A DNA stretch of 32,000 nt from Candidatus Thalassarchaeaceae archaeon (GTDB taxonomy: Archaea; Thermoplasmatota; Poseidoniia; Poseidoniales; Thalassarchaeaceae), in NCBI GenBank assembly GCA_045568075.1, contig JBJLBP010000001.1, positions 780,001-812,000 on the forward strand, read 5' to 3'. The notes beneath the pieces are model-generated. The model was not told where the DNA came from, did no database searches, and worked only from the letters and a program-made list of their open reading frames with translations. The position numbers and the translations under genes were made by a program. How positions within the stretch are numbered: the first letter of the stretch is position 1; every line of letters begins with the position of its first letter. Shown here in pieces: positions 4,604 through 29,867 of this stretch.

Positions 4604-4635
4604 TGCCTCTCGGCGGCTTCAACCCCTTTTGGCCT

Positions 4636-6897: not shown

Positions 6898-7006
6898 GGT
6901 TTGCCAAGAGCGGAGCGATTGAAATAACTCTCGTAGGCGAGGTTGCAAGAAACACGCGAGGGTGAGTGACCGTCAGACTCTTTGACCGAGAGCGGAAGCA
7001 TGACTC

Positions 7007-8287: not shown

Positions 8288-8306
8288 TCCGGAACAGGAT
8301 TATTGC

Positions 8307-8325
8307 CGACCACCAAAGGTGGTCG
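8307..8325 (+). promoter_or_regulatory. Perfect 8-bp stem / 3-nt loop hairpin between glyA and the M60-like gene
   Basis: CGACCACC-AAA-GGTGGTCG, every pair checked by hand. It starts 20 nt after the glyA stop and ends 3 nt before ATG 8329. Confidence 0.45.
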
Positions 8326-8328
8326 TAC

Positions 8329-11300: not shown

Positions 11301-12300
11301 TAATCCGACTGAATTGATGGATTGGTGGGATCAAGCACTCGAGATGGAGCACGAGCTCTACGGCTACCTGCCGTGGCCTCGAGTCGAGAGGGCGGTCTTC
11401 GATGCCCAGATTTCTGCTGGGTGGATGCATTCTGGATATCCTTTCATGGCGCATGACCTGAGCGTTGCTGGTGTGGTAAATTCATCCTACATGTCAGAGA
11501 ACGGCGATTGGGGTATGTTCCACGAATTGGGTCATAATCACCAGTGGATGCCTTCTACTCTTCCAGGAACCACTGAGACTGGATGCAACTTCGCGAGCGT
11601 CTATTTGATGGAGGAGTTGGTTGGGGTAGAGGGTCACGGGGCGGTGGACCCAGCACAGCGAGAGTCGCGTATGCGCGATTACTTCGACGACGGCTCAAAC
11701 ATCGCCAACTGGTCTGTGTGGATAGCCCTCGACACATATCTGATCATCAAGGAGGAATGGGATTGGGACCCGATTACAGAGGCCCTCAGTGTCTACTACA
11801 CCTTGCCCTCCGCCGAAGTTCCTGTAGGCGATACGGAGGAGTTCAACGCATGGGTAATGCACCTCTCTAACGCTACTGGATACAACTTAGCGCCGTATCA
11901 CGCTGCTTGGGGATTCCCACTTACTCAGGACACCTTTGACTCTCTTTCTCATCTTCCAATTTGGGTCGATGACCCACTGCGAGGAGAATATTTCGTTTAC
12001 GATGCCATGCTGCGAAATATCGGTGCCAATAGCACTACTTCGAGCACCGCCGACTTTGCTTGGGAGACCTACGATAACGGCACCAACACCACCCTTACGC
12101 TCTACTGGGGAACCACCGATATGGGCAACCAATCTTGGGTCTGGGGAAATAACGCAAATCTCGGAGATTCCGAAGTCGGTTGGGGTGAGTATGAGGTCAC
12201 CGGTTTATCGAGCGGAACTACCTATTACGCACGGGTGAAGGCTTCGAATGAGGAGCGAGACACCTGGTTCGGGCCAGTGAGTTGGACTACGTCGACTTGA
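8329..12300 (+). CDS. Secreted lipoprotein: five He_PIG-like Ig repeats, an alpha/beta region, an M60-like (enhancin/TCAF-type) zinc metallopeptidase and an FN3-like C-terminal domain
   Basis: Signal plus lipobox-like LLTALMCSSGC. Five roughly 87-aa repeats carry LPDG(I/L)x..(A/T)DGSIxGxPT. An M60-like N-domain pattern is present (STGLYAPPGEVITVSV...ILIGAHTD). The zincin motif is MFHELGHNHQW with a downstream E. The tail TLYWGT...GTTYYARVKASN is FN3-like. Confidence 0.85.
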   Translation: MPTRAQVAILLTALMCSSGCMGLFEPSEELPDILDCAEQPNHPDCIVDPVTEEDCRQDEVFTGDECRWMERPEQLSYGISSISLNVGEEMQALTPSFVGDGPDTWVINPPFPQGISFDRESGVISGSPSEATIEIRHTIVASNAVGSTSTWIDLEVTIEGPKSITYAESILDCELGHQCQLAAPSISGGEPDYWSVDPRLPDGISLLADGSIDGSPTQLGDSNHTITISNEGGSVETAIRIIVLHEAPMGLGYGGNRFILSIGDDVQVVPITTGGRIVSWSVEPPLPDGLQLLQADGSIRGSPTTVQSLTPHRVTATNTGGSISVDVLISVVDIPVSNLIYTPDEYDLTIGDEITVTPTHSGGIPDSWQVEPELPPGFTFDSTNGTISGTATDLQVDWSSFTIWANNTGGSASTSFRIRITSLAPDLISWAQTEYALASNESAFIAVTNNGPAIDSWEIEPALPDGLVIIANGSIEGTPTHNIDWTEFTIWANNTGGSVGLNIWIVVHDLRADQSELLSGLDDADWGGWSSLILPIGKWSFPLGRDTTDSTVVAASHVGRGKMIGLGHESWVTQNHEFNFRAVEWVCGEAANVGLAYGAGFDHWEDELQAEGHSVHLSVTPDDLSQVDCLLDEFWNGHDDDDNLAIEQFLLGGGGVIMGGHAWYWSYSNSDVPHNYPGNKISKITGLMVSSDWGYNDIDFEIPDLMYTPHNAIRGIFADRVDGIELTEEEAAIAYSSISDCTVIVPLDFLEFWTPLRKLVNSTGWTVIPYSTLWSSTGHELGADPVADVILRLEEALTQNLPADELPVHPSHTEFPGEVPSNATRISRTVSINGTQPGLPSNFGYSGARSSLRMSTGLYAPPGEVITVSVSQDVSELGFWILIGAHTDGLWGKDVIKRHSKIYRYWWIENTTTEIGNAFGGPIYAAIPAGSEFGEFDMTISGAVRAPMFVLGETSDFEWIYSERDNPAPWTELVSNNFIMTVPTSEIRNLNNPTELMDWWDQALEMEHELYGYLPWPRVERAVFDAQISAGWMHSGYPFMAHDLSVAGVVNSSYMSENGDWGMFHELGHNHQWMPSTLPGTTETGCNFASVYLMEELVGVEGHGAVDPAQRESRMRDYFDDGSNIANWSVWIALDTYLIIKEEWDWDPITEALSVYYTLPSAEVPVGDTEEFNAWVMHLSNATGYNLAPYHAAWGFPLTQDTFDSLSHLPIWVDDPLRGEYFVYDAMLRNIGANSTTSSTADFAWETYDNGTNTTLTLYWGTTDMGNQSWVWGNNANLGDSEVGWGEYEVTGLSSGTTYYARVKASNEERDTWFGPVSWTTST
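8551..9855 (+). repeat. Five tandem coding repeats of about 261 bp (putative-Ig / He_PIG-like domains)
   Basis: Repeat units begin at LSYG, ITYA, LGYG, LIYT and ISWA. Units 4 and 5 share the exact 17-mer TTCACAATCTGGGCCAA at 9529 and 9790, an offset of 261 nt. Confidence 0.8.
11521..11535 (+). other. HEXXH catalytic zinc-binding motif of the M60-like domain
   Basis: cac gaa ttg ggt cat encodes HELGH (residues 1065-1069). A Glu lies 14 residues after the second His (PGTTE), which fits HEXXH(8-28)E. Confidence 0.8.
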
Positions 12301-12325: not shown

Positions 12326-13381
12326 TCAATTGCTTAGACGGCGAAGCAGGGCTTCGAGGCTGAAGTTTGGACAGTGTTTCTGATGCAGGTTTGCTAATGG
12401 TATCCAAGCCAGTGTATGGGCGAAAGTGATTGTGAAAGCTGGGATGACGGCTAGTCTTGGTTGCCCCATCATGTAGGATGCGGCGAGGCCGAGGACTGCG
12501 AAGTGAAGGACGTAAATTGTCAATGTCAGACGTCCTGATGCCTCGATGAATGAGAGATTGATGAATCCGCGTTGGGCATTTAGCAGCAGCACTTCGTGTG
12601 CAATAAAAACGAACATTGTTGTGATGAAGACGAAGAATACTGATGCGGGGAAGAAGGTCAGAACCGCGTCTCCCTCAGTCAGTGCCCAAGCTGTTCCATT
12701 TCTGACCGAGAGAATGATACTGGCAAGGAGGACGAATCCTCCCATCTGAATAATTCCCAACCTGAGTCTTTGATTTTCTTCGCTTTCAGCGAGTATTGCC
12801 CCCAGTGTCGATAATGCAAACCATGGCAAGACGGGGTAAGTGCCGTTGACTAACAAACGCTGGAACCACTCACTTGCTCCGGCCGCATCGACGCGCTCAA
12901 ACCAACTCAGATCAGATCCGTTCAAATCGCCAACGAGCAATGGCGTAATGGCGAAAATTGCGAATAATCCAATCAAGTTCTCAACACGTAAGCGCGCGAT
13001 GAGTGGTGCAACAATCGCCGCCAATGCTAGTAGTGTCAAGACCCCAGGAGTGTGCCACTCGAAGCGTCCGCCACGCTCAGCGGCGAGTAAGATATTGACG
13101 AGGATTTGACAGGCAGTGAGTACCAGAACGCGCGGTAGAACCCAATCGACCCACGCGCGTGAAGCCAATCCATCGGCAAAGCGCTTCTTTGCCCCTCGAT
13201 GCATTCCCCAGCCTGAGACAGTAACAAAGAGGGGTGCGGCCATTCCTCCGAAAGCTGCGGCGACAAAGGCAGCGGGATGACCAACACCGATGCCTTCAGG
13301 TGGCAAGATTGCCGCCGTATGGACTTCAACCATGAATAGGATTGCAATCGCCTTCATCTGGTCGATATGACCTAGCCGCAC
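12326..13381 (-). CDS. Polytopic membrane protein, DUF1624 (HGSNAT-like) / acyltransferase-3 superfamily
   Basis: N-terminus R-L-G-H-I-D-Q-M-K-A-I-A-I-L-F-M-V-E-V-H matches the R..(I/L)D..(R/K)(G/A).A....M...H signature. About 10 hydrophobic helices follow. The ORF opens at GTG 13435, which would overlap deoA by 50 nt. GTG 13381 lies 4 nt after the deoA stop, and ATG 13357 is also possible. Confidence 0.65.
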   Translation of the reverse strand: MRLGHIDQMKAIAILFMVEVHTAAILPPEGIGVGHPAAFVAAAFGGMAAPLFVTVSGWGMHRGAKKRFADGLASRAWVDWVLPRVLVLTACQILVNILLAAERGGRFEWHTPGVLTLLALAAIVAPLIARLRVENLIGLFAIFAITPLLVGDLNGSDLSWFERVDAAGASEWFQRLLVNGTYPVLPWFALSTLGAILAESEENQRLRLGIIQMGGFVLLASIILSVRNGTAWALTEGDAVLTFFPASVFFVFITTMFVFIAHEVLLLNAQRGFINLSFIEASGRLTLTIYVLHFAVLGLAASYMMGQPRLAVIPAFTITFAHTLAWIPLANLHQKHCPNFSLEALLRRLSN

Positions 13382-13385
13382 AACA

Positions 13386-14663
13386 TCACCTGATAATGTC
13401 CGTGATTCGTGATTGCAATTCAATCTCCCCCTCACTCAAAATGAATGCTGATGCCAATGATTCGGATAGGCCAGCAGGCAATTCGCCCCTATGGTAAATG
13501 ACGAGCAGTGGGTCACCTTCTTCGACAGATTCGCCTACTTGAACCTCGAGGATTAGGCCGACGCAGTGGTCGATTTCGTCGCCAAGAGCGCGTCGGCCGG
13601 AACCGAGTTCGAGGCATGCCCGAGCCACAGTCATCGCCTCGATATCAGCGACCATTCCAGTGGCTTCTGCGAAGACCTCGGTCGAGAGTAGTGTTTCATC
13701 GAGCAGACCGAGTCCGCTCAGGAGTGCGTAATCGGACTCGAGGATCGAAGTGTCTCCACCTTGAGCCTCGACCATCGCACGGAAGCACGCAAGCGCGCTG
13801 CCATCATTCAGAGAATCGTGGATTTTCAGCGCGCCCTCCTCCATATCTGCGGCCAAGCCAGCAGCGGCTAGTAGCAACCCTCCTTGGACGCAAACCAGTT
13901 CCTCCAAATCGTGCGGACCACGACCGCAAAGAGTCTCGACACTCTCGACAATTTCCAGAGCGTTTCCTACAGCGCAGCCCAGGGGCTGGTCCATCGTAGT
14001 CAATACAACTGAGGTAGCAACGCCCATTCCGTTGGCAGCCCCGGCCATCGAGTGTGCAAGTTCCTCTGCCTGTTCGCGCTCGACCATGAAAGCCGCCCGA
14101 CCATATTTGACATCTAGAACCAGAGCGGACAATCCTTCAGCAGTCTTTTTGGAAACGATTGAAGAAGTGATTAGCGGAATCGAAGCCACAGTCTCTGTCA
14201 AGTCTCGCAAAGCGTACATTCGACGGTCGGCCGGGACAAGTGAATCGGTCTGTCCGACCATCACACAACCGATCTTTGCTACTTGCGCACGAACCTCATC
14301 AGTTTCTAGGTCGACTCGAAATCCAGGGATACTCTCCAATTTATCGAGCGTCCCACCAGTATGCCCCAGCCCGCGTCCAGAAATCATAGGCACCTTCGCC
14401 CCGCAAGCAGCAAGAGCGGGGGCCAGAGGAATCGAGACCTTGTCACCGACACCACCCGTCGAATGTTTGTCGACTACGAGGTGCGCCCATTCAGCCGGCC
14501 ATTCGAGTACCTCGCCCGAGTCGCGCATGGCTTCAGTAAGCCGAATAGTCGACTCGCTATCGAGTCCATTCTCGAACACATTTCGTAACCATTCAATGAG
14601 TTCGTCATCGGCTAGAGTTCCGTCCACGACCGCTTTGACCAAACGCCCAATCGGGTCGCTCAT
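13386..14663 (-). CDS. deoA: Thymidine / pyrimidine-nucleoside phosphorylase
   Basis: VVDKHSTGGVGDKVS and ISGRGLGHTGGTLDKLESIPGF are nearly identical to bacterial and human TP motifs. At 425 aa it lacks the N-terminal extension of archaeal AMP phosphorylase. Confidence 0.88.
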   Translation of the reverse strand: MSDPIGRLVKAVVDGTLADDELIEWLRNVFENGLDSESTIRLTEAMRDSGEVLEWPAEWAHLVVDKHSTGGVGDKVSIPLAPALAACGAKVPMISGRGLGHTGGTLDKLESIPGFRVDLETDEVRAQVAKIGCVMVGQTDSLVPADRRMYALRDLTETVASIPLITSSIVSKKTAEGLSALVLDVKYGRAAFMVEREQAEELAHSMAGAANGMGVATSVVLTTMDQPLGCAVGNALEIVESVETLCGRGPHDLEELVCVQGGLLLAAAGLAADMEEGALKIHDSLNDGSALACFRAMVEAQGGDTSILESDYALLSGLGLLDETLLSTEVFAEATGMVADIEAMTVARACLELGSGRRALGDEIDHCVGLILEVQVGESVEEGDPLLVIYHRGELPAGLSESLASAFILSEGEIELQSRITDIIR

Positions 14664-17600
14664 GCCTCGTCCTCGCCGTGTTCATCGCGGAGTTCTTCGA
14701 TGCTCATTCCTTTGTCAAGCATCCATTGGACTTGGTCGCGGTCAAGTTCCTCAAACCCGAAACCATCCAACACAATGGCACCATGAACGCCATCGTCGCG
14801 ACCTTCGGTCCACTCGCGAGTATCGACCGAATCTTCATCGAAGCGTGTACCCTTGAGTATCGCCCGCTCGGCATCGGCATCATCGAATCGGTAACCAGAA
14901 TCATCGATTAGCCGTTCTTCGGTCCTTATCCGTGGCCGTTTGACTAAAGTCAGTCCAGCGCCCGCAAGAGCAATCGCAGCGATAAGTGTCAGTCCCAGAA
15001 GAAACTTAGCTCCTGGAGCAGATAGGGGATTCTCACGGACATTGATGATGCCACCTGTATCGTCGTCATCACCATTGTTCGAATCGCCATCGCCAGTATC
15101 AGAACCACCATCACCATCTCCGGGATCGGTGGTTCCCGTGCCATCATCGCAGCCGAATTGGACACCATCTGCTACGCCGTTATCGTCGACATCATTCGAA
15201 TTCATCGAAGCTGATGGCGCACGCATCACTGATTGAGCGAAGGCTGGCTCATCACCATCGAGAATACAATCATCATCGGTATCACTATCATTGGGGTTTC
15301 CTCCTAGTAAGTACTCATCTAAATTATTCAAACCATCTTCATCCAAATCAAGTGATTGTTCACTCAATGCGGTTCCAAGTATTGCCGCCGAGTGGCGATT
15401 TAATCCATGTTCTATTTCCCAAAAATCGGGTAATAAGTCCCCATCTGAATCTGTTAAACTGTCCAATCGATTCCAATCTTCTTCGAATGATTGTAGGTAT
15501 TCAGAAGTCAATTCCTGATTGTGAATTAAAACTCCCATTTCTCTATTCCTCAAGGCTGCGTTTGAGCCCCAATTCATACTCCCAACGAGAACACTCTCTC
15601 CATCGATTATTGCCCCTTTATTGTGTAGTTTCACAATCGTATCAGATGAGGCCATAATTCTAGCAGTTGTGTCTAGCCCTTGAGTAGCATTCCAATCGGT
15701 GTTGAACATTTGTACAGCATCTCTGATTTCATCATCTTGGTCAACATAAAACCCGTTCAACAATAGACGGACCTTAACTCCTCGAAGCGCTGCTGAATGT
15801 ATTGCTTCAATAATTGGATTTTCGCCGAATCCCCAATACCAATCTAGATCTAGATATTGAACAGAAAGTTCGATCGATGTATCCGCAGAATCAATCATTT
15901 CGATTATCCCATCAACGCAATCATCCGGACAGGTAATCAATCGTAAATCGAATGGCCCTGAATGGTAAACTGGCGGTGTAATTTCCCCATCAAAGCTAGG
16001 CTCTTCCATCACCCAATCAAAAGTTGGAGCATGGTTGTTTGAATGAGCTGAAATGTGTAGATGCATCTGATTCTCATCCCATGCCATTCGCGATAATACC
16101 AATTCTGCGAATGATTGAGAGTTGACGATTACGGACCATTCCCTATTTCCGATTCCATCAGGTGGTAAGCTAGAATCCTTCCAATTGCCAGAGGAAATCC
16201 ATACACTTTCTGAATCTCTAACCGATACCTTGCTGTGAATATACGTGTAAGGTGAACTGATGACGCTTGGATCATCCATCCAGAGAACAGTTGCTCCAGC
16301 ATCGTGAAGAGTTTGTGCGTGTCCACGTTGGTTGTTTTTCGTACTGCTACCATCTAGGATTCCTTCTTCAAGAAGAATGCTTACTGAAACGCCCCTAGAA
16401 ATCGCTTCCAATAGGGCATTGGTCAGGTCTGGGCTCATGGACTGATAGACATGTAAATGGATTGATGAATCCGCTTGATTTATCCAGTGTAATAGATCAT
16501 TGAATCCAGTTTCTGGACTGATAGAAGCGGTTGCTGAGGAGTCCATCTCGGTGGACAAAAATCCACCATCACAAAAAGTCGAGGCACCGATTCTAATCCA
16601 TCTATATTCCCAATCTGATCCAGCATCTGTGTCTGGGTAGTCTCCACAACCGGTCCCTCGCATCAAAATTAGACCGGGAGTGCCATCTCCTGGAACTGAA
16701 ATTGCGGCTCCATTCCAACCATCGATTTCTGCAATCCCGCCTCCGAAGGCTATTGCATCTACAACAGTTCCATCGGGTGCTTTCAATTGCAATGAGCTTC
16801 CTGAATCAACCAGCCATGGCATATTGTTCATGACGACATTTCCATCCAAAGCGGCAATCCCTCCGTCGGAGAGAAGATTTGCTGGGTTCTCAGTTAGGAC
16901 AACCGATTCTCCTGCAGGTATTACCAACTCATTGAAATTCGAAATCCATGGGGTCGTTGAACGGATTCTTTCAACTGTCCAGCCGTTCAGGCTAACTTCT
17001 TCATCTCCAGTATTTGTAATCTCAAACCAATCGTTATCTCTATTTGGGACCTCACTGGGCATAATTCTAGTGAATTTCACATCAAATTCGTTGTCCCAGT
17101 CAGAAGGGGGTGATGGGGGCTGCCAGTGCCACAACATGTTGTTGCTATGCTTACCACTATCTTCTGCAATCAGCAGGCTACCATCATTGAGCACTGCGAG
17201 ATTATCTGGCCCTGCGATATTGTTGACATCACATTGACCGGATGAATAGGTTCCTCCAGAAACCACGGGATCGATTCTATTTACATCCCAATTGTCTACT
17301 ATTTCTAGGCTGTAAATCAATCCGCACCTATTCTCTGATAGTCTAATGTCACCTGAAGAATCGGTCATATCATACCTGATATCTGACATTGCTAGGTATA
17401 GGTAGTCAGGTGCGTTTTCGTTGAATACTACACCTTCCATCTTGTTCCATTCAACAGTTGCACCCAAAGCTGCTGCTGCCTTCCGTGATTCCAAGAATGC
17501 TACACGATTGTCAGCAGCGAATCCAATGTTTCCATCTCCGTCAAGATCGTCGTTGAGCGTATGTTCAGCCCAATCGTTGATTTCTTCATCTGAAATATAC

Positions 17601-19255
17601 GAATTCTGACCTGAGGCATAATCCATTGTCCCAATTCCATCGTATTCATCGATCCATCCTTGGATTGAAGCAGAGTTTGAAGATGCTAATTCCACCCAAA
17701 TCACATCAAATCCAGTTGTAGATGGATTTGTCCCAGCGTCTTGATTGACTTTTGCGGCGTAAAGAGTACCTGCGTCTAAATTCCCTGGCGAATCTGCGAT
17801 GAACTTGAAGAGCCCAGTCCCGTATTCATCATCAGACAGGTAAACTGTCTTCCTGTCTGGCATGACTTGTGCATTCTCATGGGAAAATCTACCCATCGCA
17901 AAATGCTTCTCCAAGGTTGGAGCATTCGTATCAGCATCATCCATCTCGATTATCCAGCCATAATCGTATGGATTCGGATACTCCCCTAGATAATCAGCCA
18001 ACTCTAGTTGGTCATCGTGGTAATTGTAATTTGGATTATTCCAATCAACAGTATTAGAGAAATACAATTCCTCAGACAATAAAGGGGTCCCCCATGGACT
18101 CAAAGAACCAAAGCATAGAACCCAACCTCCATTGATTCCACTGAGATCAAGCATTTTCCCTCCCAGAATATCCCAGCTTCCTTCGAAACTATTCCATTCA
18201 ATGTGAAGTTGACTAACTCCTGCGGGTCGACTTTCCCATGTTGAGTAGAGATAGCCTTCAGTTTCTCCCGAATTTGTTGCAACAAATGCGTTGAAATCAG
18301 GCTTTTCGCTAGTGAATAATAATTCTCCATCGTCTGCTGCATAAATCCCACCAGCAACCTCTCCATTCCCTAGATTGTCACCACTCTGCAACAAGGCCTG
18401 ATAGGTTCCAACAGATGTTCTGACGCCATGCCAGATTTCTGATTGGCTACTAGAAGAAGGGAGTTCTGGGATGTCATCGGGTAAGTCATTCCAGTCAAAT
18501 CCATTGATTACTCCAATCGTGGCTTTGTAAGGGTCGTCAGGATGCATAGAGCTGACAAATAAATTCCCTAGAGAATTCACGTGTAGACCAGTAACTTCTG
18601 CTCCGTCGGGTACCATCATAATTCTCGTCAAATCGGCAGGAGTACCTTGGTCATCCTCTCCACCACCATCTCCTCCAATATTCTCGCTACCCGGAGTTGG
18701 TTGTTCTGAATTAATCCATTCAGAAACTCCATCTGATGGTATCTTTGAAACGCCGTTTGAAGCCTCTCCGGTTGTTACTTCGTGAACCACATTACCTTGG
18801 CTATCTGTTAGGAATAGAGTCTCACCGCCATTATTGATACGAAGAGTTCCGATTTCATTCTCAGCGATTATTGCGTAATCTCCAGCTTCGATGAAATAAG
18901 GGGTTGTTAATTCCTCAAATCCAACCCAACTGCTGGAATTAATCGGATGAGTCCAGCCACCAACGTCAACAATTGTCCATCCTTCTAGACTAATTTCAGA
19001 GGGTCCAGTATTGAGCAACTCCACCCATTCGCCTTGAGGGAAAATACCTTGATCTGATCCATCTGCATTTGGCATGACTTCGTTGATGCAGATGTTGCAA
19101 GATTCTGTGGATTCGGACGACTCAAATCGTGCTGATTCTACTTCGCCATCTAGGAGTTGAGGAGTCATCAATCCCGTTAGCAGCAATGCCATCACGAGCA
19201 GTGCTGTACCCCTAGTTGACCCTCGGTGCATCGCCCGCATCGTTCCTTGCTTCAC
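14660..19255 (-). CDS. Giant membrane-anchored ecto-enzyme: signal, lamin-tail domain, PhoX/DUF839-like phosphatase propeller, second lamin-tail domain, PLD-family domain with two HKD motifs, bacterial-type TSP3 repeats, TM helix and a 93-aa cytoplasmic tail
   Basis: LTD1: CINEVMPNADG...GEWVELLNTGPSEISLEGWTI. PhoX-like: MGRFSHENAQVMPDRKTVYLSDDE...GPDNLAVLNDGSLLIAEDSG. LTD2: FTRIMPSEVPNRDNDWFEITNTGDEEVSLNGWTV. HKD motifs are listed as separate features. TSP3: DSDGDLLPDFWE..DEDGLNNLDEYLLGGNPNDSDTDDD. TM: FLLGLTLIAAIALAGAGLTLV followed by KRPRIR. The start could be GTG 19255, ATG 19240 or ATG 19231. Confidence 0.85.
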   Translation of the reverse strand: MKQGTMRAMHRGSTRGTALLVMALLLTGLMTPQLLDGEVESARFESSESTESCNICINEVMPNADGSDQGIFPQGEWVELLNTGPSEISLEGWTIVDVGGWTHPINSSSWVGFEELTTPYFIEAGDYAIIAENEIGTLRINNGGETLFLTDSQGNVVHEVTTGEASNGVSKIPSDGVSEWINSEQPTPGSENIGGDGGGEDDQGTPADLTRIMMVPDGAEVTGLHVNSLGNLFVSSMHPDDPYKATIGVINGFDWNDLPDDIPELPSSSSQSEIWHGVRTSVGTYQALLQSGDNLGNGEVAGGIYAADDGELLFTSEKPDFNAFVATNSGETEGYLYSTWESRPAGVSQLHIEWNSFEGSWDILGGKMLDLSGINGGWVLCFGSLSPWGTPLLSEELYFSNTVDWNNPNYNYHDDQLELADYLGEYPNPYDYGWIIEMDDADTNAPTLEKHFAMGRFSHENAQVMPDRKTVYLSDDEYGTGLFKFIADSPGNLDAGTLYAAKVNQDAGTNPSTTGFDVIWVELASSNSASIQGWIDEYDGIGTMDYASGQNSYISDEEINDWAEHTLNDDLDGDGNIGFAADNRVAFLESRKAAAALGATVEWNKMEGVVFNENAPDYLYLAMSDIRYDMTDSSGDIRLSENRCGLIYSLEIVDNWDVNRIDPVVSGGTYSSGQCDVNNIAGPDNLAVLNDGSLLIAEDSGKHSNNMLWHWQPPSPPSDWDNEFDVKFTRIMPSEVPNRDNDWFEITNTGDEEVSLNGWTVERIRSTTPWISNFNELVIPAGESVVLTENPANLLSDGGIAALDGNVVMNNMPWLVDSGSSLQLKAPDGTVVDAIAFGGGIAEIDGWNGAAISVPGDGTPGLILMRGTGCGDYPDTDAGSDWEYRWIRIGASTFCDGGFLSTEMDSSATASISPETGFNDLLHWINQADSSIHLHVYQSMSPDLTNALLEAISRGVSVSILLEEGILDGSSTKNNQRGHAQTLHDAGATVLWMDDPSVISSPYTYIHSKVSVRDSESVWISSGNWKDSSLPPDGIGNREWSVIVNSQSFAELVLSRMAWDENQMHLHISAHSNNHAPTFDWVMEEPSFDGEITPPVYHSGPFDLRLITCPDDCVDGIIEMIDSADTSIELSVQYLDLDWYWGFGENPIIEAIHSAALRGVKVRLLLNGFYVDQDDEIRDAVQMFNTDWNATQGLDTTARIMASSDTIVKLHNKGAIIDGESVLVGSMNWGSNAALRNREMGVLIHNQELTSEYLQSFEEDWNRLDSLTDSDGDLLPDFWEIEHGLNRHSAAILGTALSEQSLDLDEDGLNNLDEYLLGGNPNDSDTDDDCILDGDEPAFAQSVMRAPSASMNSNDVDDNGVADGVQFGCDDGTGTTDPGDGDGGSDTGDGDSNNGDDDDTGGIINVRENPLSAPGAKFLLGLTLIAAIALAGAGLTLVKRPRIRTEERLIDDSGYRFDDADAERAILKGTRFDEDSVDTREWTEGRDDGVHGAIVLDGFGFEELDRDQVQWMLDKGMSIEELRDEHGEDEA
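15572..15625 (-). other. Second HKD catalytic motif
   Basis: L-H-N-K-G-A-I-I-D-GESVLV-GSMN (residues 1211-1228), a perfect HxKxxxxDxxxxxxGSxN. Confidence 0.8.
16184..16237 (-). other. First HKD (phospholipase D superfamily) catalytic motif
   Basis: I-H-S-K-V-S-V-R-D-SESVWI-SSGN (residues 1007-1024). The HxKxxxxD part is exact and the GSxN part is degenerate. Confidence 0.7.
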
Positions 19256-19362
19256 GGTTGAACCCTTCGCGCATGCGCGTGCCCGGCCGGCATAGCCGGC
19301 CGTGCCTCAACAAAGCCGACTAGCCAAACCACCGCCGTCGCCGGCGTGTTTGGCGGGCAGGC
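19256..19362 (-). other. GC-rich (75/107 = 70%) highly structured intergenic spacer, possibly a terminator, processing element or miniature repeat element
   Basis: Contains CGGCCGGC-ATA-GCCGGCCG (19284-19302, perfect 8-bp stem). Contains the palindrome GCGCATGCGC (19269-19278). Contains an imperfect hairpin GCCAAAC..GCCG-GCGA-CGGC..GTTTGGC (minus-strand reading, GNRA-type loop) at about 19323-19354. Flanking genes are AT-rich. Confidence 0.5.
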
Positions 19363-22092
19363 TCAATCTTCATCTTCGGATCTCGCGCCGTTGAGGCCGA
19401 TTGCTCCGTAGACCAACAATGAGACGCCTGCGATGTAGAGCACAGCGGTCACTATGTCGATGACCATGGTTCCTTCAAGTTCGCAGTCACCTTCTCCACC
19501 GAAATCAGTCCAGTACATTGGGTCCATATTGTCTAGAACCTTACACTTGAAAGTCTCAGCATCTTCATCAGCAATTTCAGATGCTGTGTGGATTTCGAAT
19601 ACTGGCTTTGCATCTCCTGCCTCAAAGTCAGGGTTAGTCATTCCAGCACCTCTCAAGTCTAGATAGAATCGAGATACAGACTTACCATACATTGCAACAT
19701 TTGTTGTTGGTTCGACCTTGATGTCAACATGAGATCCGAAGTAAACTGGTAATGCACCAGGTAGGACATCTACGAAACTATTGGAAGCAATTAATTTCGC
19801 CTGTATTTGATTTTCAGCAGGGTCCAAATCTACGGTGTGTTCGCGCATCGGTATTCCCTTGAAATCAGTCATTTCACCAGGTACGCTCTCTGCAATAGAA
19901 TAGCCTACTAGATTAACTGAGAATGAGTCATCAGCGTCAGCTATTCCTCCAATTGTTCCAGCAACAACCGTGTTGCTGTTACCGATATTGTCAGTCAGAA
20001 GTCCGTATGTTGCTGCCTCTCTGTGAGGGGCGCGCCATGGTAGGTGTTCGGTCATACCATAGATTTCTCCTTCATCACAGGGATAACCACCATCTGAATC
20101 AGCATCTGCAACAGTGCCATCAGCATTCAACTTGAAGTCACACTGTCCATCTCCATCAGAATTTGTGTATCCTTGCATCAGTCTCTGTCCAAGAGTTTCA
20201 TCATTAACAATACTCATCACATAGACGTCGTAATCTCCAGTGCTCAGACCATCAGGTCTGTCCTCATTCTGAGATCCAAAGTAAGTCATGTTAGTCTCTA
20301 GTTTAACCCACGAACTTTCTTCATCGTAAAGTCCTGTAAGTACTGGATCACTCCACCCATACAACCAATTTTCAATTGGTTGAGTGGTATACGGGCTTGC
20401 TCCATACTGGAATCCGAGTAGAGAACCAATTACAGATTCAAACATGAAGTCCTTCACCCAACTGCGTACAGCCGCAGCATCATTCTCAGATATGTCGTAT
20501 AGTGAAGCAACGTATGCATCATCCCAATCGGCAACAACTCCTCCCATCGCTGGTCCTTCTGCAGTCATTGGTAGTGTTATTCCTGATAATTCATTATACA
20601 TGAAAACACGAGAAAAGCTTTCGTCAGTTAGAGCATAATCAGATGTGTAAAGGATTTCTTGTACCTTCTCAATCGATAAGTCGACAGTTCCTTCATATGA
20701 TCCTTGATTCAAGCCAATTGAGATATATCCTCCAGCAAGTGGTTCTTCTCCACCAAAGGAGTGCTGCCACCATAGGTCACAATCCATCATCCCCGACCCT
20801 CCAACGAGAATCATCGGGAAATTGGTTGGTTGGCCGACCAAGCCAATCCATCCACCTGCATAATCAGATAGAGCAAGTAATTGCGTCAGGCCGATGCCGT
20901 AGTCGAGCATTGTTGTGAAGGCATCAGCGTCGGCTCCTAGAAGGAAGAGAGCAACTCCGGCTAACGGAATTCCATTGTAATCCGACATTGAGAGAAGACC
21001 ATTTGCAATCTCAGCACCTTCAACTCCGAAAATTATATTGTTGAGCGCAACAGCATTTGAGATATCGACACCAGAAACCGCATTCAAGCGCTCGCGAAGG
21101 TCTGTTACTTGAGTCAAATCTGCACCTCCACCCTGTTCTAGCCATTTAGCGCCAGCCATTGCATAAACCGACCAGTCAGTCAGGCTATCCGATGCATCGT
21201 AGCCGTAGAGAGCGGCGCGAACCGGGGTGGTCGCAGCACTCGGCTCTCCAATTCCTGCTGCTAGCATTGGACCGATGTCACAAGTAAGCGCGATACAGAC
21301 TCCAGTTGAGGGGTCGGCTGCATCGTATAGGATGCTAGCGGCGGTCGAAGAGAAATCAGGATCCATTGGGCCCGCTCCGCCGGCCGATGCATTCCATGAA
21401 TCGTAGGCGCCATCCATCACCATGACTGGCGCCATAGCGGCGGCGGTAGCTGCATCGTATCCAGCGGCTTCGAGTTGCGCAGCAACACCATCGATACTGG
21501 CACTAATTTCATCAGCGGCCCACATCGACGGAGCCTTATTTTGCAAATCATTTGCCATCATCTCATTGGCAAAACCAGCCTTGGCGAAAATTTCGCCGTA
21601 AATGATTCCAGTTGCGATGCCAGCTAGTCTCTGGGTGTTGTATAGAATATTCATATTTGTGAATTCAGTTGAACCTGGAAGTGAAGCATGTTCGTTACCC
21701 TCATCATCAGTCCATGTGCAGTTTTCACACCATTCAAAGACGTCATATTCAGAGTAAGTAACGGTTCCAGCCTCTGTATCAAGGCCAAGAAGCGTTCTGT
21801 GGGTTGTAACTTCATAGACGAATGGTCCCATCTTTTCGAATTCGGCATTTACCGCAGAATTTTCTGTTAATTCATCGACATTAGTTATTGAATAACCGAA
21901 GTAAGATCTTTCGGAAGTAGATACGCTCCATTCATCATCATAATCCTCTTCTGAATCATAACCTGCTGCAATAGTATCGCCTACTCCAGCCTCTACCTGA
22001 CCTGCCACAAATGGGGCTAAGGCCATGAAGTTCATTCCGATTAATACAAGTCCTGCAAGTGCGATTGCGGTCGCCTTTTGTCTGTCATCCAT
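19363..22092 (-). CDS. CD36 / scavenger-receptor class B (LIMP-2) family-like membrane protein with N- and C-terminal TM helices and a large insertion
   Basis: The hairpin topology is an N-terminal TM (AIALAGLVLIGMNFMALAPFVAG) plus a C-terminal TM (VIDIVTAVLYIAGVSLLVYGAIGL). Ordered matches to CD36-family motifs are FEKMGPFVYEV, GTVTYSEYDVFEW, EFTNMNIL, ENWLYGWSDPVLTGL, KGIPMREHTV, LPVYFGSHVD, RFYLDLRGAGM and KPVFEIHTASEIADEDAETFK. ATG 22092 has GGAGGT 12 nt upstream. The ORF extension to 22212 overlaps the upstream gene and adds a non-membrane leader. Confidence 0.7.
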   Translation of the reverse strand: MDDRQKATAIALAGLVLIGMNFMALAPFVAGQVEAGVGDTIAAGYDSEEDYDDEWSVSTSERSYFGYSITNVDELTENSAVNAEFEKMGPFVYEVTTHRTLLGLDTEAGTVTYSEYDVFEWCENCTWTDDEGNEHASLPGSTEFTNMNILYNTQRLAGIATGIIYGEIFAKAGFANEMMANDLQNKAPSMWAADEISASIDGVAAQLEAAGYDAATAAAMAPVMVMDGAYDSWNASAGGAGPMDPDFSSTAASILYDAADPSTGVCIALTCDIGPMLAAGIGEPSAATTPVRAALYGYDASDSLTDWSVYAMAGAKWLEQGGGADLTQVTDLRERLNAVSGVDISNAVALNNIIFGVEGAEIANGLLSMSDYNGIPLAGVALFLLGADADAFTTMLDYGIGLTQLLALSDYAGGWIGLVGQPTNFPMILVGGSGMMDCDLWWQHSFGGEEPLAGGYISIGLNQGSYEGTVDLSIEKVQEILYTSDYALTDESFSRVFMYNELSGITLPMTAEGPAMGGVVADWDDAYVASLYDISENDAAAVRSWVKDFMFESVIGSLLGFQYGASPYTTQPIENWLYGWSDPVLTGLYDEESSWVKLETNMTYFGSQNEDRPDGLSTGDYDVYVMSIVNDETLGQRLMQGYTNSDGDGQCDFKLNADGTVADADSDGGYPCDEGEIYGMTEHLPWRAPHREAATYGLLTDNIGNSNTVVAGTIGGIADADDSFSVNLVGYSIAESVPGEMTDFKGIPMREHTVDLDPAENQIQAKLIASNSFVDVLPGALPVYFGSHVDIKVEPTTNVAMYGKSVSRFYLDLRGAGMTNPDFEAGDAKPVFEIHTASEIADEDAETFKCKVLDNMDPMYWTDFGGEGDCELEGTMVIDIVTAVLYIAGVSLLVYGAIGLNGARSEDED

Positions 22093-22189
22093 AGTGCTCA
22101 CTCTACCTCCCCACGTGTGCGTATATGGGATAAGCGATTCTATCCATACGAACTGACAATATCTTCGTTTGAGATTTTGATTCGACGCC

Positions 22190-23845
22190 TCAAGCGAAAC
22201 CGAATGCGTCAATTTCGCGGGCGAATGTATAGATCATAATAGGTACCAGAATCACACCCATTCCGTGCGATCTTCGGATGCCGATTCTCGGTGCCATGAG
22301 CCCGATCATCGTGCCAATCACTAGCGTCCCCACTCCAATCCAATCTGTTGAGATCCACACAAGTATTGTGATGAAAACACTGACTCCGATTACCAGGTTT
22401 CGGAGCGGCACCAATTCGTGCATCTTTAGCATCCCCTTTCCGACCTCAATCATCACCGGTACAGCGAACAGTCCAGACGCGACAGTTATGGCGAGCAGTC
22501 TAATGAAATCGGCCGGTGGTTCGACCGCGTTCCAGATGTCTATAGGATACATCATGTTGAGTGCAAGGGCAGCTCCTGAGCGCGGTCTTCCGACCATGTA
22601 GAGGAAGCCGAGAACCATCACCGTAACCGCTGTGTTAACCGATGAAAGAATCGCGATGATTTCGAGGTCACGCTGTTGGTTATTGTTGACAAGATCTAGG
22701 TCGGGAGTTGCTCCAGCGTCGGCCAGCGCTTCTTGGAACAACTCGCGGTCTTTGAGAGGGAGTTCCTCCATCCCTTCGAAGACCATGACTTGTGGCATCG
22801 ATTCGAAGCCCGGCTGGGTGCCATGTTCGAAGTCAGCCGGGATGTAATTAGGATCGGTCAGTTTACCCCAGAAATTTCGCGCGCTCATCACCACGACAGT
22901 CGCTTGAGCAGCAGTCATCCCAGGCAGAATCGCCATCACCGACGAGACAACGGCCGACAAGAACGTCGGAACCATCAGTGGTTTAGGATCCGGCATTTCC
23001 CAATTAGGCTCCTGAGGGGGAATTTCACTCGTCGTCACGTAGATGTCAATCAGGTTAGCGATTCCAAACAATCCTGCCAAACTTGGGAATAGCAAGGATG
23101 CTGAAGGAATCCCAACTGGCGAGCGCGCAGGCAATTCGAAAACTGCCCATCCGTAGAATCCGGTAAGCAGGAAATACGCCGTAGCTACCAGAATCCCTGC
23201 AGTCCGCGAGCTCTCACCCAAACGGAAGTCGATGGCGTCGTAGCGCCTTCGGATGCTGAAACGACCCATCGGGATGGTGAACTCGATTGGTTTCTTCAAT
23301 GCCCACTTGAGCCGATTCGTCACTTTCTGAGACCACATCGGCCAAGGAAGCCGTGTTGTTTCAGTCATAATCAGAAAAATCGAGATGAAGAGCAACAACC
23401 AAGGAAGTTGGTCGCGACTCGCTTCATACAATCCTAATCCCGGATCATCGCCAAAAAGTAATCTTGCTACAATAAGCAGTGGAATCGACATCAGCATGCC
23501 CATTTGTGAGCCGCGCGCTGAGTAAGCGACTCCTTGCGCGGCCTGACCGGAAATCAACATCCGATGCCCGGGCAGAAGGGCGAGCGCCATGTTATCATCA
23601 GGAGCACCTACCAAGGCGCTCGGAATATAATTCAGGAAAGTATGGACAGTCCCACAGGCCACAATAATCCCCGCTACAGCGTCCAGCGGGATGCCTATCC
23701 CTACAGCGACTGGGGAAAGTGAGAGAGCGATTAGGGCGACGTTATTGACGTGGAAGCCAGGAATCAAGCCCGTTAAGCAACCGAGAAATATTCCGAAAAC
23801 GAATGACCCGATTAGCCACGCATAATCAATCATCCACGGGTCCAC
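22190..23845 (-). CDS. TctA-family / DUF112 polytopic membrane permease-like protein
   Basis: At least 10 hydrophobic helices. GCLTGLIPGFHVNNVALIAL and a second ILPGMTAAQATVVV copy the TctA G..PG(l/i)g motif. HTFLNYIPSALVGAPDDNMALALLPGHRMLISGQAAQGVAYSARGS parallels the TctA IL.NIPGE....T.LDGY.M...GRAG.AL pattern. GTG 23845 lies 3 nt after a GAGGTGAT box. Confidence 0.65.
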   Translation of the reverse strand: MDPWMIDYAWLIGSFVFGIFLGCLTGLIPGFHVNNVALIALSLSPVAVGIGIPLDAVAGIIVACGTVHTFLNYIPSALVGAPDDNMALALLPGHRMLISGQAAQGVAYSARGSQMGMLMSIPLLIVARLLFGDDPGLGLYEASRDQLPWLLLFISIFLIMTETTRLPWPMWSQKVTNRLKWALKKPIEFTIPMGRFSIRRRYDAIDFRLGESSRTAGILVATAYFLLTGFYGWAVFELPARSPVGIPSASLLFPSLAGLFGIANLIDIYVTTSEIPPQEPNWEMPDPKPLMVPTFLSAVVSSVMAILPGMTAAQATVVVMSARNFWGKLTDPNYIPADFEHGTQPGFESMPQVMVFEGMEELPLKDRELFQEALADAGATPDLDLVNNNQQRDLEIIAILSSVNTAVTVMVLGFLYMVGRPRSGAALALNMMYPIDIWNAVEPPADFIRLLAITVASGLFAVPVMIEVGKGMLKMHELVPLRNLVIGVSVFITILVWISTDWIGVGTLVIGTMIGLMAPRIGIRRSHGMGVILVPIMIYTFAREIDAFGFA

Positions 23846-23848
23846 GGA

Positions 23849-23856
23849 ATCACCTC
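23849..23856 (-). promoter_or_regulatory. Shine-Dalgarno box (GAGGTGAT) overlapping the stop codon of the upstream gene
   Basis: The minus strand reads cgcTGAGGTGATtccGTG. The box is complementary to the canonical archaeal 16S 3' end AUCACCUC. The TGA of the 532-aa gene lies inside it, and GTG 23845 follows after 3 nt. Confidence 0.55.
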
Positions 23857-25453
23857 AGCGGATATCGATACAGAACTGCATTGTGTTACCAAATGAATCC
23901 TCGGCTGTTGAGAGTCGTCCAGTCCAATCGATTGGTGCTCCAATCGATTCTTGCTGACTTGCTTCGGTTCCGTCTCCGAGTAGACAAACTTGCTCATCGG
24001 AGCCGGATCTCTGAATCCATTGATTTCCATCCTCATCCATTGTGGCTTCTCCATTGAGGATGACTAACTTTCCAATATCCCATTTCCATGAATTGTAACC
24101 ATCTCCCCAATTCAGGGTCGTCGGTGAGGGTGCTTGGCCAAGTGTCCAAGCGCGCGCTTCGAGGATAACTCGCCCTTCACTCTCAGACCAAATCACGGTC
24201 GCGTTGAATCGAATCGCCTGCCCTGATTCGATATATTCGGCATGTTCTCCGATGAGATGCAGCCTCAATTTCGTCGTGCGCGAATAGTAATCGGGGCCAT
24301 CGCCCACGTAGCCCTTGTCGTAATCGGGCGATATCGGATCAGTCACCCAACCCTCGAATGTGTAATTCTGACCGATGAAAGCGAAGGGGTTCTCGGCGAC
24401 ATCGAGCATAGCTGTGACATCATCGCCGAACTGTCCCGTTGGATTATCCGCCGAGGAGTCGTAACCAAGACGCTCGAGACAAATCGTCGCCTCGTCGGTT
24501 GACCAGACTAGTCGGCCTGACCAGGTCTTTGTCGAATTTTCAATTCCTTCACTGAGATCGGCAGGTGAAGGAAGTAAACACAATCTGTCTGTCGGCGCAT
24601 CACCAGTAAGCCACCAACCATCAGAGGCCTCGGTCGCTGTACCGTCAATTCTGACCTTTTTCCCAACTTCGTAAGTCAGCGTATACGGTTCAAGCTCCCA
24701 AGAAAGATCCACAGTCGATCCATTATTCAGCACCTCGACCGCAGTCGCTTGCACTAGGAGTCGCCAGCGCAGTGAGCGCTGGTCATATTGCAGCCAGCCG
24801 GAAATTTCTACATGGCTGCCTGCCTCAACCCAATCCATCACACGGCCCTCAATTTGCATGTACAATAGATGGTCAGCGTTACCATAGGAAGGGTTGTCCA
24901 TCAAGCTCAGAGAGTGGTAAGTAACGTCAGGTTCAAGCGGTTCTGAGAGGTATCCATCAACCCTCACTGACATATTCGAGAATGCTTCGGGATTCATGGC
25001 GACTTCGACCAATTGCATTGCAGTGTAATCGATTCCATCACAATCTGTGTCCGCACATTGAATCGCACCGTATCCATTGGAAGAAAGCCAAATTCGACCA
25101 TTCCATTCAGTGACTTCACCCTCGACCGTGACAATTGTCCCAATTGGGGGGATATCGATGTCTCGGTCGACGAACCAACGAACTTCGAGAGCTGAGTGCC
25201 CGTCGACCTCACGGATTTGCAAATCAATTCGATCAGCCTGTTCTCCATAAGGGTCGACAACGAAGCTAGTTAGTACACCTTTGATTTTGACAGTCTCGCG
25301 CGGATATTCATGAATTTCGTCCATATCAATCATATCCGGTTCACGAATAACCGCATAGAAATTCATTGTCGATACAAGTAGCAAGGCAGTGAAGAACATC
25401 ACCCAGAGCTTCGCCATGTGTCTGCGATGTGCGAGCAATGCTTGAACATTCAC
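23855..25453 (-). CDS. Membrane-anchored extracytoplasmic protein built from about five OB-fold-like repeats (hypothetical)
   Basis: N-terminal anchor HRRHMAKLWVMFFTALLLVSTMNFYAVI. Repeats have the tRNA_anti/OB pattern V+I+G.L......(acidic)..L.I.D..g.l.V.........G..V.V.G.V..W.G.. (VKIKGVLTSF..., VRVDGYLSEP..., VRIDGTATEA..., YTFEGWVTDP..., LVILNGEATM...). Start is GTG 25453 or ATG 25417. Confidence 0.6.
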   Translation of the reverse strand: MNVQALLAHRRHMAKLWVMFFTALLLVSTMNFYAVIREPDMIDMDEIHEYPRETVKIKGVLTSFVVDPYGEQADRIDLQIREVDGHSALEVRWFVDRDIDIPPIGTIVTVEGEVTEWNGRIWLSSNGYGAIQCADTDCDGIDYTAMQLVEVAMNPEAFSNMSVRVDGYLSEPLEPDVTYHSLSLMDNPSYGNADHLLYMQIEGRVMDWVEAGSHVEISGWLQYDQRSLRWRLLVQATAVEVLNNGSTVDLSWELEPYTLTYEVGKKVRIDGTATEASDGWWLTGDAPTDRLCLLPSPADLSEGIENSTKTWSGRLVWSTDEATICLERLGYDSSADNPTGQFGDDVTAMLDVAENPFAFIGQNYTFEGWVTDPISPDYDKGYVGDGPDYYSRTTKLRLHLIGEHAEYIESGQAIRFNATVIWSESEGRVILEARAWTLGQAPSPTTLNWGDGYNSWKWDIGKLVILNGEATMDEDGNQWIQRSGSDEQVCLLGDGTEASQQESIGAPIDWTGRLSTAEDSFGNTMQFCIDIR

Positions 25454-25608: not shown

Positions 25609-25685
25609 GGACCCGTAGCTCAGTTGGTTAGAGCGCTCGGCTCATAACCGAGTGGCCACCGGTTCAAATCCGGTCGGGTCCACCA
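25609..25685 (+). tRNA. tRNA with anticodon CAT (elongator Met or Ile2-type), CCA encoded
   Basis: Acceptor GGACCCG/CGGGTCC. D stem GCTC/GAGC. Anticodon stem CTCGG/CCGAG with loop CTCATAA. T stem ACCGG/CCGGT with loop TTCAAAT. Discriminator A, followed by CCA. It is not initiator-like because there are no three G-C pairs at the base of the anticodon stem. Confidence 0.9.
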
Positions 25686-25820: not shown

Positions 25821-25842
25821 GGCTTAATCCGGCCTTGAGTTG

Positions 25843-26781: not shown

Positions 26782-26802
26782 CCCCGCCTCGCTCTAATTG
26801 AA

Positions 26803-26821
26803 TTGCCACCATAGGTGGCAA
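26803..26821 (+). terminator. Perfect 8-bp stem / 3-nt loop hairpin 22 nt after a stop codon
   Basis: TTGCCACC-ATA-GGTGGCAA, all pairs verified by hand, with no following T-tract. It lies between co-directional genes. Confidence 0.4.
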
Positions 26822-26872
26822 CGGGTTGATAACCGGCGGAGTTGACGCCTCAGCATCCGGAGAGGTTAGTGA

Positions 26873-29788: not shown

Positions 29789-29867
29789 ATCCTCGTCGTG
29801 TGTCGAGCCACCAATGAAGCAATCGGCGGCATGAGCGGTAAACCGAGAGTTCTTCTCGCATGAACTA

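Follow-up and report, generated by a model that had tools for sequence, protein, structure and literature searches.

A candidate four-gene module for the scavenging of extracellular nucleic acid in Poseidoniales archaea

Six neighboring genes that run in the same direction on the chromosome of a marine archaeon raise the question of whether they act together and, if so, on which substrate. They lie in the 32,000-nucleotide stretch of DNA analyzed here (the window), whose source is a Marine Group IIb (MGIIb) archaeon (Candidatus Thalassarchaeaceae, Poseidoniales), and occupy positions 12326-25453 of its minus strand in the order A-B-C-D-E-F. Marine Group II (MGII) archaea are among the most abundant heterotrophs of the surface ocean and are uncultured. 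Dissolved DNA, for its part, holds large amounts of organic phosphorus, nitrogen, and carbon. A first-pass annotation of the window had read the six open reading frames (ORFs), joined by tight junctions, as one surface system for harvesting nucleic acid and/or phospholipid. We re-read the ORFs and their junctions from the sequence and found them as described, and the domains that had been assigned to the six products were all recovered by Pfam. The genes are as follows.

23855-25453, minus strand: gene A, ORF of 532 amino acids (aa), weak match to the Pfam tRNA_anti-codon OB domain
22190-23845, minus strand: gene B, 551 aa, Pfam TctA
19363-22092, minus strand: gene C, 909 aa, Pfam CD36
14660-19255, minus strand: gene D, 1531 aa, Pfam two LTD, PhoX, and two PLDc_2 domains
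13386-14663, minus strand: gene E, 425 aa, Pfam Glycos_transf_3 and PYNP_C
12326-13381, minus strand: gene F, 351 aa, Pfam Acyl_transf_3/HGSNAT_cat

Comparison of this locus with its relatives points to a smaller unit. We propose, with moderate confidence, that A, B, D, and E form a four-gene module conserved in the Poseidoniales that scavenges extracellular nucleic acid, and that C and F are separable neighbors. We found no description of the A-B-D-E module in the searchable literature. A bounded, conserved module of this kind would offer a concrete, testable route by which MGII could use extracellular nucleic acid.

The gene order was compared in more than 160 related loci (numbered L001-L166). 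A CD36-anchored scan, in which each GTDB species was represented by a single genome, yielded 79 loci, onto which all window proteins were mapped; an A-anchored scan retrieved six distant homologues of A (29-48% identity) and with them seven loci (L080-L083 and L164-L166); and a D-anchored scan of metagenomes gave 80 loci, all of them relatives at no less than 64% identity. In one contig of a metagenome-assembled genome (JAQXEV010000067, L001), protein identity to the window was 94-99% across the entire region. The six-gene order was present in all near relatives (MGIIb clades, more than 90 loci), where it is embedded in a longer conserved order of GARS, CarS, three surface genes, A to F, M60, and SHMT, and all 80 of the D-anchored loci were consistent with A-B-C-D-E-F as far as each locus reaches. 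The list of homologues obtained for the thymidine phosphorylase encoded by E was filled up by MGIIb matches at 71% identity or more.

The loci found through distant homologues of A separated the six genes. All seven carry A, the TctA gene, the giant LTD/PLD gene, and the thymidine phosphorylase gene in this order, and the CD36 gene was found in none of them. Two loci (L082 and L165) read A-TctA-LTD/PLD giant-thymidine phosphorylase-SHMT, and one (L164) reads A-B-D-E-F. In the remaining four (L080, L081, L083, and L166), a divergent HD/dGTPase-like gene is followed by A-B-D-Bax1-I-(SMR)-2OG-Fe(II) oxygenase-thymidine phosphorylase. Across the distant lineages, E lies 0-3 genes downstream of D, and in all contexts that were looked at B comes after A, also where A is 30-48% identical.

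The complementary pattern was seen in a second group of loci (e.g. L022, L024-L028, L037, L048, L050, L057, and L060), which read u313-C-F-M60-SHMT and lack both A-B and D-E. Altogether, at least 15 loci retain C although A, B, D, and E are all missing, and no locus with D-E but without A-B was met among those examined. In a neighbor-joining tree of C, the loci without both A-B and D-E fall into at least two clades, which are interleaved with clades having both pairs. Because A-B-D-E occupies the same chromosomal position in distant lineages, its presence is the more parsimonious ancestral state, and ancestral presence implies at least two independent double losses flanking a retained C. This joint absence of A-B and D-E is stronger evidence for a unit than the gene order itself. 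The first-pass annotation had suggested conservation of the gene order across relatives as a test of the six genes as a single unit; the outcome was negative for that unit, since the presence of C and of F does not follow that of A, B, D, and E. Its proposal of nucleic acid harvesting held up for A, B, D, and E, which are kept together down to 30% identity, and had to be dropped for C and F.

The junctions within the window are as follows. Between A and B, the TGA stop codon of A is followed by 9 nt (ggtgattcc) and the GTG start codon of B, and a Shine-Dalgarno box, GAGGTGAT, extends across the stop codon; the median A-B gap is likewise 9 nt (n = 72 loci). D and E share an ATGA overlap (14660-14663) and abut or overlap in 75 of the 89 loci that carry C, D, and E. 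E and F are separated by TGA, 4 nt, and GTG 13381. From these arrangements, B is predicted to be translationally coupled to A, and E to D. The gap between B and C is 97 nt when ATG 22092 is taken as the start of C, which the homologue N-termini (consensus MD..QKA) favor over TTG 22212, and the gap between C and D is 107 nt up to GTG 19255. The 97-nt region upstream of C contains a TATA-like CATATAC and the Shine-Dalgarno sequence GGAGGT, and the junctions ahead of B, E, and F are of the Shine-Dalgarno or overlapping type typical for internal operon genes. Judging from these signals, the transcription units are likely [A-B], [C], and [D-E-F].

Two non-coding features upstream of A and D bear on the starts of these genes.

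25440-25451, minus strand: box GAATGTTCAAGC at promoter position upstream of A
19257-19302, minus strand: conserved non-coding element of about 46 nt just upstream of D

TTCAAGC lies exactly 24 nt ahead of the Met13 ATG of A (25417) and is conserved not only across MGIIb loci but also in L082, whose A is 44% identical. A TTCAA core (box 19257-19268, minus strand) lies 26 nt ahead of the Met9 ATG of D (19231). Because of these boxes 24-26 nt upstream, and of the homologue N-termini, A probably starts at Met13 and D at Met9 rather than at the starts of the longest ORFs. A spacing of 24-26 nt is where the archaeal TATA element sits on genes with leaderless mRNAs; the positions of the boxes suggest leaderless transcripts for A and D, with N-termini shorter than the longest ORFs. 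Since TTCAA/TTGAA-like boxes also precede other genes of the window, such as that of an 879-aa surface protein, we do not claim specific co-regulation of A and D.

The element ahead of D consists of an 8-bp GC hairpin (CGGCCGGC-NNN-GCCGGCCG) with a variable 3-nt loop, followed by the invariant box CGAAGGGTT[C/G]AA, and it is kept while the flanking sequence diverges. The hairpin is 99.8% paired over 50 distinct sequences, among which two pairs show full compensation (GC to AU or the reverse in 21 sequences, and CG to UA or the reverse in 20). The window contains a single copy, and Rfam gave no match. The C-D spacer had earlier been called structured. Over its full length it shows no significant gain in stability over shuffled sequence (z = -1.7), and what stands of that description is this single hairpin backed by covariation; two further helices that can be drawn in the spacer are 74% and 84% paired with zero compensatory changes and were discarded as unsupported. 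The element could serve as a terminator or stabilizer for C, or as a regulator or promoter for D. Third-position GC is 0.388 in C and about 0.39 in D, compared with 0.47-0.58 in every neighbor (0.50-0.58 in A, B, E, and F), and the low-GC span 14660-22092 adjoins B and E, both higher, the latter overlapping D. Codon bias, recombination, or a different history could account for the low values of C and D.

We then considered what the four proteins of the module are likely to do, with transmembrane (TM) topology taken from hydropathy throughout. Three parts of D are referred to below.

17120-18628, minus strand: PhoX module of D (residues 210-712), optional
15473-16525, minus strand: tandem Nuc-like PLD (HKD) core of D (residues 911-1261)
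14663-14935, minus strand: cytoplasmic tail of D (residues 1441-1531)

From its N-terminus, D comprises a signal peptide, LTD1, PhoX, LTD2, two HKD/PLD domains, an acidic TSP3-like region, a TM helix, and a cytoplasmic tail. Its hydrophobic segments are residues 17-36, a signal-like N-terminus, and 1411-1440, which is followed by the 90-aa tail; D is thus predicted to be an extracellular, surface-anchored type I membrane protein. The Pfam scores are 114 bits for LTD (two copies), 101 bits for PhoX, and 137 bits for PLDc_2 (two copies). The parts that stay constant across lineages are the LTD, the tandem HKD core, the TM helix, and the tail.

The HKD core carries the motifs HSKVSVRD..GSGNW and HNKGAIID..GSMNW, and the pattern HxK(x)4D...GSxN is invariant in seven lineages down to 42% identity. 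When a profile of this core was compared with PDB sequences, the best matches were nucleases of the PLD family, namely Nuc (1byr, E = 5e-14), Zucchini/MitoPLD (8e-13), and NucT (1e-9), together with the PLD3/4 exonucleases. In NCBIfam and PADLOC, DrmC and NucT ranked ahead of cardiolipin synthase, with all NCBIfam matches under their curated cutoffs. The PLD domains of D are therefore closest in sequence to PLD-family nucleases rather than to phospholipases, and nucleic acid would be the substrate of D. No match to an EEP or SNase catalytic domain was found in A or D with Pfam or NCBIfam. We also considered an anti-phage role of the DISARM type on account of DrmC and rejected it, because D is predicted to be extracellular, no Drm partners are encoded nearby, and only the PLD domain matches DrmC. 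In the literature, a Poseidoniales PLD was found only as a member of a published phylogeny.

In the window, the PhoX module scores above the Pfam threshold and resembles a solved PhoX (PF05787, 101 bits against a cutoff of 24, profile positions 157-454 of 515; E = 1e-10 against Pseudomonas fluorescens PhoX, 3zwu). Among the D orthologues of the same 89 loci, however, 42 are long and contain PhoX, 43 are short and lack it cleanly, and 4 are shorter still and begin at LTD2; both forms are interleaved among close relatives, and in the distant lineages four or five LTD repeats stand where PhoX would be. The earlier assignment of phosphate removal to PhoX thus agrees with the D of the window and fails to extend to about half of its orthologues. 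The presence or absence of the module by clade and this PhoX variation yield markers for mapping in ocean metagenomes and metatranscriptomes. At its end, the tail of D carries the motif ..VQ..LD.GW.[IM]E[EQ]L.., which aligns in all 10 lineages compared. The tail possibly binds a cytoplasmic partner, such as the thymidine phosphorylase whose gene overlaps that of D. The other surface proteins of the window differ from D in having PGF-CTERM-like C-terminal anchors.

E is soluble and scored above the curated NCBIfam cutoffs for thymidine/pyrimidine-nucleoside phosphorylase (NF004490, 465 bits, cutoff 269; TIGR02644, 449 bits, cutoff 409), as the first-pass annotation had it. An identity as AMP phosphorylase was rejected (TIGR03327, 199 bits against a cutoff of 535). 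At the level of an equivalog match, E is a predicted cytoplasmic thymidine/pyrimidine-nucleoside phosphorylase. In the distant lineages, only 1-4 nt separate the end of a DIOX_N/2OG-Fe(II) oxygenase gene, itself preceded by the Bax1-I gene, from the thymidine phosphorylase gene, and a gene with HD and HD_assoc domains (dGTPase-like) lies divergent from A or a few kilobases upstream of it (L080, L081, L083, and L166, and also L082 and L165). These oxygenase and HD/dGTPase-like genes may be further partners in nucleoside metabolism.

A belongs to a family of 109 homologue clusters, all from Poseidoniales, and has a single N-terminal TM helix (residues 16-36). Its only hints from sequence are a weak PF01336 match and, in a profile search of PDB sequences, a sole and marginal match to the OB domain of RPA32 (E = 0.046). 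An AlphaFold2 model based on 27 sequences (predicted local distance difference test score, pLDDT, 77.5) consists of five beta-barrel domains. With this model, a Foldseek search of the PDB returned OB-fold proteins for all of the top 50 matches, led by the tandem-OB DNA binders HIN200-dsDNA, RPA70, Teb1, CST, POT1, and SSB (E down to 7e-10). The model and the TM helix thus describe A as a membrane-anchored extracellular array of five OB-like barrels, in keeping with its earlier description as a multi-OB membrane protein; the barrels were not assigned to a different fold. By the same comparison, A would bind nucleic acid.

B is polytopic and matches PF01970 (TctA) with 133 bits against a cutoff of 28.9. 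The other subunits, TctB and TctC, had no Pfam match among the ORFs of the window or the called genes of seven related loci. B therefore resembles the TctA large subunit of TctABC and differs from that system in being always paired with the OB-array protein A and lacking TctB/TctC, and its cargo may be something other than a carboxylate. That an archaeal TctA homologue has a constant partner is one side lead of this work.

Put together, these features suggest the following scheme. D would be held on the cell surface by its C-terminal TM helix, and its LTD repeats would project the tandem Nuc-like HKD core, which would cut extracellular nucleic acid. In about half of the lineages, the inserted PhoX propeller could remove terminal phosphate in place. 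Anchored N-terminally beside B, A would hold the polymer or the oligonucleotide products with its five OB-like barrels, and B, a TctA-family protein working without TctB/TctC, would carry a product across the membrane. In the cytoplasm, E would phosphorolyze the imported pyrimidine (deoxy)nucleosides to base and (deoxy)ribose-1-phosphate for carbon, energy, and salvage. A further step, which we think quite doubtful, would be that A and B constitute a new type of uptake system in which the OB array replaces the periplasmic binding protein of a TctA-family transporter and feeds the fragments released by the PLD nuclease, be they oligonucleotides, single-stranded DNA, or nucleotides, to a TctA-like channel. 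If true, it would be the first assigned function for archaeal TctA homologues and an archaeal counterpart of DNA import of the ComEA/ComEC type.

The use of extracellular DNA by means of extracellular nucleases is already known in bacteria, and the comparison shows what would be new here. YhcR of Bacillus subtilis is a wall-anchored protein in which tRNA_anti-codon-type OB folds stand beside nuclease and phosphoesterase domains; it combines SNase and 5'-nucleotidase domains in one sortase-anchored chain, and the window system has no such domains. ExeM of Shewanella oneidensis is an extracellular nuclease of the ExeM/NucH type that combines LTD, OB folds, and a nuclease domain and is used on extracellular DNA (PMC6085458). 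ExeM is, however, a single bacterial polypeptide with an EEP catalytic domain, whereas the archaeal system has tandem Nuc-like HKD/PLD domains in D and places the OB folds on a separate protein, A, that is coupled to a permease. NucT of Helicobacter pylori, a nuclease of the PLD family, has been implicated in both purine salvage and transformation (PMC5714352). NucT (PDB 6ehi) and Salmonella Nuc (1byr) share the HKD catalytic fold with the core of D and are its best sequence matches, but they are single-HKD proteins of about 155-180 aa that form homodimers, while the single 1531-aa chain of D unites a pair of HKD domains with LTDs, an optional PhoX, a TM anchor, and a cytoplasmic tail. In Vibrio cholerae, PhoX, UshA, and CpdB act downstream of secreted nucleases, and PhoX contributes to the use of phosphate from extracellular DNA (PMC4714964). 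The logic of nuclease followed by phosphatase, PhoX included, is the same, but the V. cholerae genes are scattered, their products are separate periplasmic or secreted proteins, and the aim is phosphate, whereas in D an optional PhoX is fused to the nuclease protein and the module would be tied to nucleoside phosphorolysis instead of a Pho regulon. The new elements would thus be the archaeal host, a tandem Nuc-like PLD on an LTD stalk, an OB-array protein that is separate and coupled to a TctA homologue, and a link to thymidine phosphorylase.

A number of points weigh against the four-gene module and its assigned role. The collinear stretch includes the housekeeping genes GARS, CarS, and SHMT, so that gene order alone is weak evidence; the order of GARS, CarS, the three surface-protein genes, M60, and SHMT persists even at about 30% identity of A. 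In a third clade (L038-L063), ArgRS and eRF1 come after A-B-C, with no D-E within 10 kb, and the tree of C from which the double losses were read is a midpoint-rooted gene tree, not a species tree. The domains of A are all acidic (pI 4.1-4.5), an argument tempered by the acidity of the whole proteome, and most multi-OB entries of the PDB bind DNA, which biases the Foldseek ranking of A toward DNA binders. Characterized TctA transporters carry carboxylates, and the A-B-D-E module contains no known nucleoside transporter. Finally, the substrate specificity of a PLD fold cannot be read from sequence, and the enzyme activities and binding given here are predictions from sequences and models.

Some of these points would be expected if no functional unit existed, that is, if this were a slowly rearranging region of Poseidoniales chromosomes whose tight junctions come from a compact genome. 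The collinearity of GARS, CarS, the surface genes, M60, and SHMT with the cluster fits such a region, as do the heterogeneous functions of the proteins, the clade that has A-B without D-E nearby, and a third-position GC in C and D (0.39) sharply unlike that of A, B, E, and F (0.50-0.58). It would not lead one to expect, however, that A-B and D-E should be jointly missing at least twice with the intervening gene retained, or that a stop codon should be covered by a Shine-Dalgarno box at one junction and another junction be an ATGA overlap, both signs of translational coupling. Nor does it account for the theme shared by OB folds, LTD, nuclease-like PLD, PhoX, and a nucleoside phosphorylase, joined elsewhere by HD/dGTPase-like and 2OG oxygenase genes. 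We consider the absence of a unit unlikely.

Scavenging of phosphorus is another possibility, in which D would be a phospholipase D or general phosphodiesterase acting with PhoX on lipids or organic phosphorus, and thymidine phosphorylase would be an unrelated neighbor. PLDc_2 and PhoX do occur together in D, weak matches to cardiolipin synthase and PLD1 were obtained, and a CD36-like gene and an acyltransferase gene lie nearby. However, lipid-acting PLDs in the PDB matched the HKD core with E-values of 1e-3 (PLD1) and 0.1 (PS synthase), the PLD1/2 matches being marginal, compared with 5e-14 to 1e-9 for the nuclease-type relatives. PhoX is missing in about half of the D orthologues, the overlap of D with E and their order-wide linkage would go unexplained, and the lipid-related genes C and F are precisely the separable ones. 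With a nuclease-like HKD core, an optional PhoX, and D coupled to E, the phospholipid alternative raised in the first-pass annotation gained no specific support, and we regard it as rather improbable.

The original six-gene model, in which a CD36-type tunnel and an acyltransferase join the other products in one surface system for nucleic acid and phospholipid, depends on C and F. C is predicted to have TM helices at both termini with a large ectodomain between them. The window protein scores 36.7 bits against PF01130 (cutoff 26.5), 7 of 8 individually scored members exceed the cutoff (the other, L036, scores 26.0), and each of 18 diverse members gives a match at E <= 0.01 (best 6e-18), always at profile positions 40-134 of 463 only. 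A family profile matched only LIMP-2/SCARB2/CD36 in the PDB, and two CD36 signature motifs are collinear in C, the second being 'LLWGY.D'-like, with an insertion of about 430 residues between them. An AlphaFold2 model of C from a 14-sequence alignment had a pLDDT of 35. C thus shares with CD36/LIMP-2/SR-B1 the two terminal TM helices, the large ectodomain, the Pfam threshold, and the PDB matches, and it differs in that about 20% of the profile is matched, in the insertion of about 430 residues, and in being double the usual size. CD36-related proteins of about 900 aa with two TM helices occur throughout the Poseidoniales, with identity down to 30%. One homologue of C is already labeled 'CD36 family protein' by NCBI, and no account of an MGII CD36 homologue was found in the searchable literature; an order-wide archaeal CD36-related membrane family is a second side lead of this work. 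CD36 is a lipid-transfer family. F is polytopic and Acyl_transf_3/HGSNAT-like.

The six genes are co-directional with tight junctions, their order is shared by the more than 90 near-relative loci, C lies physically between B and D, and F begins 4 nt after E both in the window and in L164. Nevertheless, C is separable from the A-B-D-E core: as described above, it is missing from the seven distant-A loci and persists in at least 15 others that have none of A, B, D, and E, and in Poseidoniaceae it lies amid unrelated genes (MscS, PheRS, aminotransferase, and FolD). It also has its own 97-nt upstream region and is parted from D by the hairpin-plus-box element, and the order seen in near relatives takes in unrelated housekeeping genes as well. 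F is absent at L082 and L165 and yet is kept, directly after C, in clades without D-E; it is part of the chromosomal backbone with or without D-E, and in the window it is probably co-transcribed with D-E while remaining separable. The six-gene model is thus largely refuted by phyletic patterns, and we consider it very unlikely to hold in full. With no link of C to A-B-D-E, the import of products through a CD36-type tunnel is unsupported, and we propose either an insertion of C between B and D in the MGIIb lineage or its loss from that place elsewhere.

Very unlikely as well is a machine for the uptake of DNA or oligonucleotides analogous to ComEA/ComEC, in which D would nick or degrade a strand, A would hold single-stranded DNA, B would be the channel, and E would handle the degraded strand: an OB array with a polytopic protein and a surface nuclease does resemble the OB/channel/nuclease logic of ComEC, and the leading structural matches of A include the single-stranded DNA binders RPA, POT1, CST, and SSB, but Pfam and NCBIfam revealed nothing similar in sequence to ComEC, ComEA, or pilus components (nor Competence, DUF4131, Lactamase_B, or HhH domains in A or B), B belongs to a family of small-molecule transporters, the module has no ATPase or translocase, and the linkage to thymidine phosphorylase points to catabolism. 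The implication of NucT, itself a PLD-family nuclease, in transformation (PMC5714352) would also accord with such a machine. The four-gene scavenging module remains the reading that we prefer.

The six genes are surrounded by many large, very acidic surface proteins (1964-12300 and 25840-29956), which comprise the following.

1964-4603 and 4636-6948: TSP3-repeat proteins with PGF-CTERM-like ends
8329-12300: M60/enhancin-like peptidase of 1323 aa with He_PIG domains
25840-26781: choice-of-anchor T protein
26873-28096 and 28097-29956: two unannotated proteins

A tRNA-Asn gene is located at 1887-1962 (plus strand). A tRNA-Met (CAT) gene at 25609-25685 (plus strand) lies between the choice-of-anchor T gene and A, and in L080, L083, and L166 a tRNA-like T-arm sequence was found at the same relative position. 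The flank of the six genes also contains the gene of CDP-archaeol synthase (CarS). The 5' ends of the ORF 28097-29956 (minus strand) and of the CarS ORF 29868-30566 (plus strand) overlap by 89 nt (29868-29956), and at least one of the two true starts probably lies further downstream.

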